This document shows positions 46,014-48,373 of a stretch of 64,000 nucleotides of DNA, piece by piece; the first letter of the stretch is position 1; each line of letters opens with the position of its first letter. Position numbers and translations under genes: made by a program. The notes beneath the pieces were generated by a model. That model saw only the letters and a program-made list of their open reading frames with translations. It searched no databases and was not told the DNA's origin. This stretch comes from Promethearchaeota archaeon (GTDB taxonomy: Archaea; Asgardarchaeota; Lokiarchaeia; Sigyniarchaeales; SOKP01), in the NCBI GenBank assembly GCA_019058295.1, contig JAHPZI010000014.1:47935-111934 (forward strand). The letters run 5' to 3'.

Positions 46014-46070
46014 AAGAATAATTTATTTTTTATTTTTTATTTTTATTTCACCGATACCTTCGCAAAGGTC

Positions 46071-46121
46071 AGTCCTCTTACGACTCCATTTTTTCTCGTA
46101 AGAATCATTCAATTCGGGACT
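46071..46121 (-). promoter_or_regulatory. Eukaryote-type SECIS element in the 3' UTR of the candidate selenoprotein
   Basis: AUGA-U-UCUUACGA-GAAAAAAUGGAG-UCGUAAGA-G-GA-C: AUGA/GA core, perfect 8-bp helix, A-rich loop. Confidence 0.75.
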
Positions 46122-46149: not shown

Positions 46150-46377
46150 CTATTGGATTTGTATTAATTTAATGTCGTATATTTTATTGAGTTTATAAAT
46201 TGAGAAGCCTTGCTTAAAGTTCACACATCCTCAACCTCCTCCTCCAGAATCACTAGCGTCTGCGCTATTTTCACCATCACCTTCATAATACTGACTATTT
46301 AAATAAATAACAATTATCGTTATTGAAAAAGTCGTTAGAAGTGCAACTAAGGCAATTATTATAATAGTCTTTTTCAT
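46150..46377 (-). CDS. Candidate membrane-anchored selenoprotein (75 aa, Sec49); absent from the ORF track
   Basis: MKKTIIIIALVALLTTFSITIIVIYLNSQYYEGDGENSADASDSGGGG-U-GCVNFKQGFSIYKLNKIYDIKLIQIQ*; TGA at 46233-46231; downstream SECIS; TATA-like TTTTTATAA about 33 nt upstream. Confidence 0.7.
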
Positions 46378-46574
46378 GTTTTTTTTTTTAGTAAGTTCCG
46401 ATTTGGAAATTATAAAAACACCAATCCTTTTTTTTATTTTAATATAAATTGGGAATTTTTACTATATAAAATGTGATAATTTTCTTAGAAATAAAATTAA
46501 ATAAAATTAATATTTAGAGATTAATTTACAAATAGTAAAAGTTATATTTCAAAGGCAACAAGGGCGTGTTTTTG

Positions 46575-46677
46575 GGGCGCGTGTTAAGTTTTCAGATAGA
46601 AGCTTACGTGAAGTCTAGCCCGGTATGACGTCCGCTTGACGTGCGGAAGGTCGCGAGTTCGAGTCTCGCCGCGCCCA
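46575..46677 (+). tRNA. tRNA-Val(GAC) with 29-nt intron at position 9/10 (46584-46612)
   Basis: Acceptor GGGCGCG/CGCGCCC-A, anticodon arm TCCGC-TTGACGT-GCGGA, GTTCGAGTC T-loop, BHB-like junction. Confidence 0.9.
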
Positions 46678-48272: not shown

Positions 48273-48373
48273 TGCGCCCTCCGGGAATTGAACCCGGGTC
48301 ACCAGGTTGGCAACTTTGCCTGATATATCTCTAGATATACCATCTGGTATACTTACCACTATACTAAGAGCGC
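48273..48373 (-). tRNA. tRNA-Gly(GCC) with 29-nt intron at position 30/31 (48315-48343)
   Basis: Acceptor GCGCTCT/AGGGCGC-A; splicing restores CCAGG-TTGCCAA-CCTGG; GGTTCAATTCC T-arm. Confidence 0.9.

Follow-up and report, generated by a model that had tools for sequence, protein, structure and literature searches.

A predicted family of membrane-anchored micro-selenoproteins with Asgard type I SECIS elements in Lokiarchaeia

Archaeal selenoproteomes are short lists that consist mostly of soluble enzymes of redox and energy metabolism. For Asgard archaea, seven families were listed in a 2024 survey and a 2026 review, all of them found by homology: SelD, FrhA/VhuU, HdrA, FrhD/VhuD, Prx-like, AhpF-N-like and DsbA-like proteins (PMC11227280; review PMC13188914). 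It has been reported that Asgard archaea, including Lokiarchaeota, use eukaryote-like SECIS elements of type I (Mariotti et al. 2016, PMC4989117; Huang, Xiao & Zhang 2024, PMC11227280), and no eukaryote-specific selenoprotein family was found in these organisms (Huang et al. 2024, PMC11227280). Two other systems resemble the locus described here. SELENOK and SELENOS of eukaryotes are single-pass membrane micro-proteins. The proteins of DUF4266 (PF14086) are small, are secreted by bacteria and have a CXC motif at the C-terminus; their genes cluster with DsbD, ApbE, DUF3570 and thioredoxin-like genes (Meheust et al. 2021, PMC8238504).

We analyzed a locus in a Promethearchaeota genome that, in our assessment, quite likely holds a real gene, missed by annotation, whose product is a selenoprotein of 75 residues from a family not described before. 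The organisms and the decoding system are the same as for the published Asgard families, but none of those is a single-pass membrane protein of fewer than 100 residues. No published description of the family was found in the literature; the published surveys were homology-based and therefore could not have found it.

Predicted read-through ORF, SECIS element and Sec machinery

The window, i.e., the whole 64,000-nucleotide stretch of DNA analyzed, comes from a metagenome-assembled genome (MAG) of 3.2 Mb that is 79% complete and has a GC content of 31%. The closest public relatives are sediment MAGs of Promethearchaeota, which agrees with the Lokiarchaeota-type organism presumed in the sequence-only reading. 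The candidate gene lies on its minus strand (C14:94087-94311 in genome coordinates), and its parts are listed in Table 1. Gene calling with translation table 11 gave at this locus only a 48-aa product (46231..46377), and the public gene calls contain the identical 48-aa form, unnamed, the read-through form being absent from the record. A sequence-only reading of the window had pointed to a minus-strand ORF missed by its ORF track, and we found every sequence feature it described at the place where it had put it. The predicted protein starts with MKK and continues with a 23-residue hydrophobic stretch (mean Kyte-Doolittle hydropathy of 2.9 in the best 19-residue window), an acidic and Gly-containing linker, GGGG-Sec-Gly-Cys and a 24-residue tail. 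AlphaFold predicted a helix at residues 2-32, with mean pLDDT of 81-93 in the three ten-residue blocks of residues 1-30; the transmembrane helix was the sole confident part of the model and the region around Sec was disordered. In a strain variant from a second sediment sample, the TGA and the Gly-Cys codons were kept and the linker carried an in-frame deletion of 12 nt.

Table 1. Features of the candidate gene and of the element behind it, in positions of the window
Feature	Position	Strand	Remarks
TATA-like TTTTTATAA, possible promoter	46410..46418	minus	33-41 nt upstream of ATG; indistinguishable from background of the 31% GC genome
Read-through ORF	46150..46377	minus	75 codons + TAG; small predicted selenoprotein; homologs share the layout
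Start codon ATG	46375-46377	minus	read from the sequence
Predicted single transmembrane helix, signal anchor behind MKK	46300..46368	minus	approximately residues 4-26
Acidic, Ser/Gly-rich disordered linker	46234..46299	minus	C-terminal end GGGG (SGGGG); pLDDT <50
In-frame UGA (TGA in DNA), probably read as selenocysteine	46231..46233	minus	residue 49; aligned TGA in homologs
Gly-Cys, with the Cys partner of Sec	46225..46230	minus	U-G-C motif
24-residue tail	46153..46224	minus	poorly conserved; spaces the UGA ~125 nt from the SECIS core
TAG stop	46150-46152	minus	24 codons beyond Gly-Cys
Asgard type I eukaryote-like SECIS	46044..46120	minus	R1 model, 53.1 bits; covariation in the family
SECIS 5' core ATGA	46105-46108	minus	41 nt past the TAG stop
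SECIS helix II, 9 bp	46096-46104 paired with 46075-46083	minus	no mismatch
SECIS apical loop, 12 nt	46084-46095	minus	A-rich, begins GAAAAAA
SECIS 3' GA	46073-46074	minus	
SECIS side hairpin	46057-46068	minus	small, GC-closed stem

Asgard type I elements have been defined by a GA_[G/A]A core, an upper stem of 7-15 bp with no more than 2 mismatches and an apical loop of 8-20 nt (PMC11227280). With its ATGA...GA core, 9-bp stem and 12-nt loop, the candidate element falls within this definition, and its core is 125 nt away from the UGA. However, when the definition was written as a regular expression it matched 113 sites in the genome and was thus unspecific alone. We therefore built a stricter, independent covariance model (R1), the result of which provides real support. 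The 3' flanks of selD from related genomes and of vhuD and vhuU from this genome have a common composite element, and the model was trained on seven of these SECIS elements (selD from five genomes plus vhuD and vhuU from this genome), with no member of the candidate family among them. In a scan of the whole genome, R1 detected six sites at E <= 6.4e-8, which corresponded to selD, vhuU, three hdrA-vhuD clusters and the candidate locus (53.1 bits, E 2.6e-8); three of the six were training sites, and two further hdrA-vhuD clusters and the candidate were not. The seventh match scored just 23 bits. This drop after six sites indicates that, in this genome, the element is confined to the 3' side of selenoprotein genes and of the candidate ORF. 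The SECIS-like hairpin that the sequence-only reading had placed about 40 nt past the stop is thus present, at 41 nt, and is recognized by a model that has not seen the family. The SECIS families of Rfam, curated models that do not include the Asgard type, gave no match to the hairpin at either gathering or permissive thresholds.

The hairpin fold was more stable than those of shuffled sequences (z = -2.35). In an alignment of 29 family loci, 8 of the 9 pairs of helix II showed compensatory changes, and 92.8% of helix II cells were paired vs. 39-51% when the partners were slid. The outer helix between the two flanks was weak at the candidate locus (4 bp) and unsupported across the family (mean best run of 4.9 vs. 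4.3 in shuffles). Compared with described type I Asgard elements, the candidate element has the same small GC-closed side hairpin after the core as those of selD, vhuD and vhuU, and nothing essential differs, although the outer helix of selD is weak in the candidate copy. It has been proposed that newly evolved selenoprotein genes borrow SECIS elements from existing ones (Huang et al., PMC11227280). By analogy, the candidate element was probably borrowed from known Asgard selenoprotein genes.

Two details of the RNA structure were also observed. In the minimum free energy fold, an upstream AGUCCC (46112-46120) pairs with AGGACU (46071-46076, minus strand), so that the 3' GA of the SECIS core would be buried; this alternative pairing is probably not conserved, as the 5' arm reads GCCCC in the closest relative (G007). 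Besides, GUGA replaced AUGA in the 5' core of two family elements (L089:1754-1827 and L137:1179-1252), which R1 still scored at 53-55 bits.

The genome appears to have the machinery to read UGA as selenocysteine. Of the components whose presence the sequence-only reading had called for, SepSecS (480 bits, unambiguous) and a Sec-containing SelD (selD has an in-frame TGA) were clear, and two others fell just below their cut-offs: an EFSec-like gene ~3 kb away in the machinery cluster (240 bits, cut-off 242), and a tRNA with UCA anticodon directly upstream of SepSecS, the best Rfam family of which was tRNA-Sec (44.2 bits vs. a cut-off of 47). The EFSec-like gene, the tRNA-Sec(UCA) candidate and SepSecS were clustered within 6 kb on one contig (C30:98363-104077). 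PSTK was not found in this 79% complete MAG (TIGR03574, 22.9 bits; PF08433, no match); the MAG is incomplete and the missing gene is therefore no proof of absence. ARAGORN found no tRNAs at all, missing even the tRNA-Sec candidate seen by Rfam, and its results were left unused. It also missed two tRNAs that Rfam placed in the window, at 46607-46673 (plus strand) and 48273-48373 (minus strand). The first matched model positions 4-67 only and the second was 101 nt long, and therefore both probably contain introns.

Other selenoprotein loci of the genome had features of their own. The three hdrA-vhuD clusters were located on C18 (L035:94-1984), at C1:161714-161791 and at C7:38468-38541. In each of them hdrA contained in-frame TGAs, one of which, within DDC-x-I-U, was clearly a Sec site, vhuD contained two TGAs, and a single SECIS followed vhuD; this arrangement puts more than 1.5 kb between the UGA of hdrA and the element downstream. 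In addition, a hairpin on another contig (C8:18003-18037, minus strand; L034:1204-1238) was found behind an ORF ending in ...DLQPDPGC, followed by TGA-TGA and ~35 more in-frame codons. This hairpin fits the loose SECIS definition (ATGA, 8-bp stem, A-rich loop and TGAC) and was not recognized by R1. The ORF could end in a double stop, or it could encode another hidden selenoprotein, the SECIS of which has diverged.

Distribution, subtypes and probable Sec decoding of the family

A six-frame search with the protein identified homologs in the same genus; each has a single TGA, at the position seen in the candidate. Profile searches extended the family to 50 of the 161 genomes of the class. All of them fell into three genera of a single family-level clade, with matches in 4 of 9 further genomes from the genus of the candidate and in 30 of 42 and 15 of 54 genomes from the two remaining genera. 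We also searched 1.84 billion representative proteins exhaustively with the profile and obtained 29 matches. The short ones stop exactly before the Sec position, and several long ones have W there. For four metagenome contigs (L158, L159, L160 and L161 from ENA, all short and AT-rich), the DNA gives the database entry only if TGA is translated as W. When four family-like metagenome contigs were checked with R1, a SECIS was found behind three. One entry with C-V-C (P0032) was considered as a Cys-form member and rejected, since it had no SECIS and was of low complexity. Restriction to three genera and to 29 representative clusters argues for a young, lineage-specific invention, as far as can be judged from sequence.

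The family showed a distinct subtype in each genus. Members from the genus of the candidate had GGG(G)-U-G-C, those from the second genus GGG-U-P-x-x-C (including GGG-U-PSTC), and those from the third a poly-Asp stretch followed by C-F-U, C-x-x-U or C-x-x-x-U. In an alignment of 23 members, the Sec/Cys pair alone formed the invariant columns, with Sec in either position depending on the lineage and with 1-3 residues between the two. Linker lengths differed among homologs by in-frame indels. All 16 U-first members (two genera) and 3 metagenome members had a Cys 2-4 residues beyond the UGA. Neighboring genes differed by genus in the three neighborhoods analyzed (PGK and tRNA-Val; TrmB and radical SAM; Trm112 and GT4). 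The gene therefore stands alone, and its context supports no function.

The UGA, the adjacent Cys and the SECIS are conserved across the three genera. An in-frame TGA at the aligned position was present in 49 of the 53 profile matches. A scan of 29 family loci with R1 gave exactly one match at each (36-66 bits), and this match was directly 3' of the ORF in all 25 loci checked (25/25); the check for a SECIS behind homologs that the sequence-only reading had suggested was thus positive. In one homolog, G085, a G-C-N-C aligned with C-F-U; this gene has no TGA, its ORF continues and the SECIS sequence is retained. The check for a Cys aligned with the UGA was therefore positive as well, in this single case (C-N-C).

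Codons beyond the UGA gave a mixed picture. The dN/dS ratio was 0.66 in the tail vs. 0.62 before the UGA, with a lower out-of-frame control; across three data sets the ratios were ~0.5-0.8, and out-of-frame controls were equal or lower, so this measure was non-discriminating. The sequence-only reading had asked whether codons past the UGA are conserved; the Cys was invariant 2-4 residues after U in U-first members, and the rest of the tail was without clear purifying selection. UGA and SECIS core were 51-60 nt apart in one genus, compared with 93-125 nt in the two remaining genera, and spacing may be the main role of the tail. Coding region and SECIS overlap in the third genus (G105, L071:1760-1833; G067, L075:1751-1824; G085, L086:1756-1833). 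The ORF of G067 ends at a stop codon within the apical loop, and that of G105 crosses the entire hairpin, its stop being the UGA in the 3' core of the SECIS. The codon at this stop site is GGA in G085, where the ORF reads on.

If the UGA were an ordinary stop, the gene would encode a 48-residue membrane micro-protein, and the 3' hairpin would be a kink-turn or terminator-type element acting, for example, in mRNA stability. This is the product present in gene callers and public databases, and the weak constraint on the tail after the motif would fit it as well. One metatranscriptome run gave no RNA coverage of the locus, a result that counts neither way. We nevertheless consider it improbable, because this type of hairpin is otherwise found in this genome only behind bona fide selenoprotein genes, the Cys codon is invariant 2-4 codons past the UGA in all U-first members, and the one homolog in which Cys replaces the UGA reads on. 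Stop codon usage is also against it: TGA is a minority stop (13.5% of the long ORFs of this genome, vs. 75% for TAA), yet it is kept in 49/53 homologs from three genera, and the read-through ORFs of the family mostly end in TAA. Thus, the 75-residue protein is very likely decoded with Sec and its gene is very likely a real, unannotated one. The earlier proposal, in which the ORF encodes a new selenoprotein of Asgard archaea, a Sec-x-Cys motif is tethered to the membrane and Sec is decoded through a eukaryote-like 3' SECIS, is strongly supported by the conserved UGA, the SECIS elements of homologs, the Cys-form homolog and the Sec machinery.

Comparison with SELENOK/SELENOS and DUF4266

The GGUG string of the candidate had also led to the suggestion of a possible relationship to SELENOK and SELENOS, and this part of the sequence-only reading found no support. 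In a six-frame search of the genome at E <= 10, PF10961 (SelK_SelG) gave four weak matches elsewhere and none at the candidate locus (C14:94087-94311), and PF06936 (Selenoprotein_S) gave no match in the genome at the same threshold. PF10961 was also absent from the Pfam families listed for the 23 members, none of which reached the cut-off of any Pfam or NCBIfam family listed. Both groups are single-pass membrane micro-proteins in which a Gly-rich segment is disordered and Sec lies close to the C-terminal end, and both are decoded with the help of a 3'-UTR SECIS with an AUGA/GA core. They differ in topology, as Sec is cytosolic in SELENOK and SELENOS (the N-terminus is lumenal) and is predicted to be outside the cell in the Asgard family. 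They also differ in the partner Cys, which is 1-3 residues from Sec in the Asgard family and ~14 residues away in SELENOS, SELENOK having none. Besides, GGUG occurs only in the genus of the candidate, whereas the other genera have GGG-U-PSTC or C-F-U.

That the family is a true evolutionary relative of SELENOK/SELENOS, possibly of an ancestor type, is extremely improbable in our view. The similar layout, with an N-terminal transmembrane helix, a Gly-rich disordered segment and a Sec near the C-terminus, and the local GGUG string in one genus would speak for such kinship. However, the other two genera lack GGUG, the topology is predicted to be the reverse, the two Pfam models gave nothing at the locus and no listed family cut-off was reached. 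Moreover, the family occurs in a single family-level clade, where three genera carry it, it has only 29 representative clusters in a set of 1.84 billion, and eukaryote-specific selenoprotein families were not found in Asgard archaea (PMC11227280). The resemblance in layout would therefore be an analogy at most. A proposal that the family preserves the prototype of SELENOK/SELENOS-type membrane selenoproteins appears very improbable; if true, a selenoprotein architecture of eukaryote style would for the first time be traced to Asgard archaea. In a less extreme form of the proposal, the family would be a purpose-built swinging-arm selenenylsulfide relay at the cell surface, unique to Lokiarchaeia.

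DUF4266 is the nearer analogue. Its members are likewise very small and exported (the Asgard proteins are predicted to be extracytoplasmic), and in both groups a Gly-rich stretch precedes a C/U-x-C pair close to the C-terminus, for which redox cycling is proposed. It was also the sole Pfam family with an alignment over the motif region, which covered residues 36-51 of one member (E = 1.1, 10.7 bits vs. a cut-off of 27). The DUF4266 model gave no match at the locus in the genome-scale search. In contrast to the bacterial proteins, the Asgard family is archaeal, has a non-cleaved transmembrane anchor instead of a signal or lipoprotein peptide, and uses Sec. None of the partners (DUF3570, ApbE, DsbD and thioredoxin-like genes) was found beside the Asgard genes in the three neighborhoods. 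In the genome as a whole, DsbD_TM gave nothing above cut-off and DUF3570 was not found, the latter being a weak result whose control matched nowhere. Membership in DUF4266 was rejected on the basis of the alignment below cut-off (E = 1.1) and the absence of partner genes nearby.

Predicted topology, proposed function and significance

The charges on the two sides of the helix were strongly asymmetric in the 23 members, with +113/-23 in the N-terminal flanks and +8/-99 in the C-terminal flanks. According to the positive-inside rule, this asymmetry places the N-terminus in the cytoplasm and the linker with the Sec/Cys pair outside the cell in all 23 members. Thus, the pair is predicted to be extracytoplasmic. 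The protein would be inserted as a type II signal anchor, with the Lys-rich N-terminus in the cytoplasm followed by one transmembrane helix, and the flexible acidic linker would hold the Sec/Cys pair, spaced by 1-3 residues, outside the cell membrane. The pair could then cycle between the selenol/thiol and the selenenylsulfide, so that the tethered redox arm would exchange reducing equivalents with extracytoplasmic thiols, disulfides or peroxides. A Sec/Cys pair of interchangeable order and 1-3 residue spacing on a flexible acidic tether is most simply interpreted as a redox-cycling selenenylsulfide arm. Given Sec decoding, we assign about an even chance to a redox-relay function, based on the motif and on analogy.

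The same Sec-decoded gene could instead provide a Sec/Cys pair that binds or traffics a soft metal or metalloid (such as Ni, Cu, Hg, As or selenium) at the cell surface, and the poly-Asp/Glu linker would then be an arm that attracts cations. Soft metals are bound well by Sec/Cys or Cys/Cys pairs at close spacing, the linker is strikingly acidic (99 acidic vs. 8 basic residues in the C-terminal flanks of 23 members), and oxidoreductase partner genes are absent nearby. However, genes for metal transporters or chaperones are also absent from the three neighborhoods examined, a lone pair makes a weak metal site, and the free swapping of Sec and Cys and their 1-3 residue spacing are typical of redox pairs in selenoprotein families. 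Metal binding is therefore a rather unlikely function, and the redox arm is the reading we prefer.

These data have several implications for the search for selenoproteins. A search that starts from SECIS elements reveals micro-selenoproteins specific to single lineages, which gene callers cut short at the UGA or translate wrongly with Trp. Database entries with W at the Sec position, produced by translating TGA as Trp, represent a systematic artefact that can be mined for hidden selenoproteins. Besides, the finding is a warning that the selenoproteome sizes reported for Asgard MAGs are underestimates. The compact cassette of gene plus SECIS (~330 nt) could be used as a reporter to study how the eukaryote-like Asgard SECIS is read without SBP2.

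The family also offers a natural example of Sec and Cys trading positions within a redox pair. Judged from sequence comparison, it appears to be a new and narrow family, specific to its lineage, of micro-selenoproteins that span the membrane once and are decoded with a Lokiarchaeal SECIS of the normal kind. If confirmed, a single-pass membrane selenoprotein, with its Sec probably outside the cell, would join the archaeal lists.
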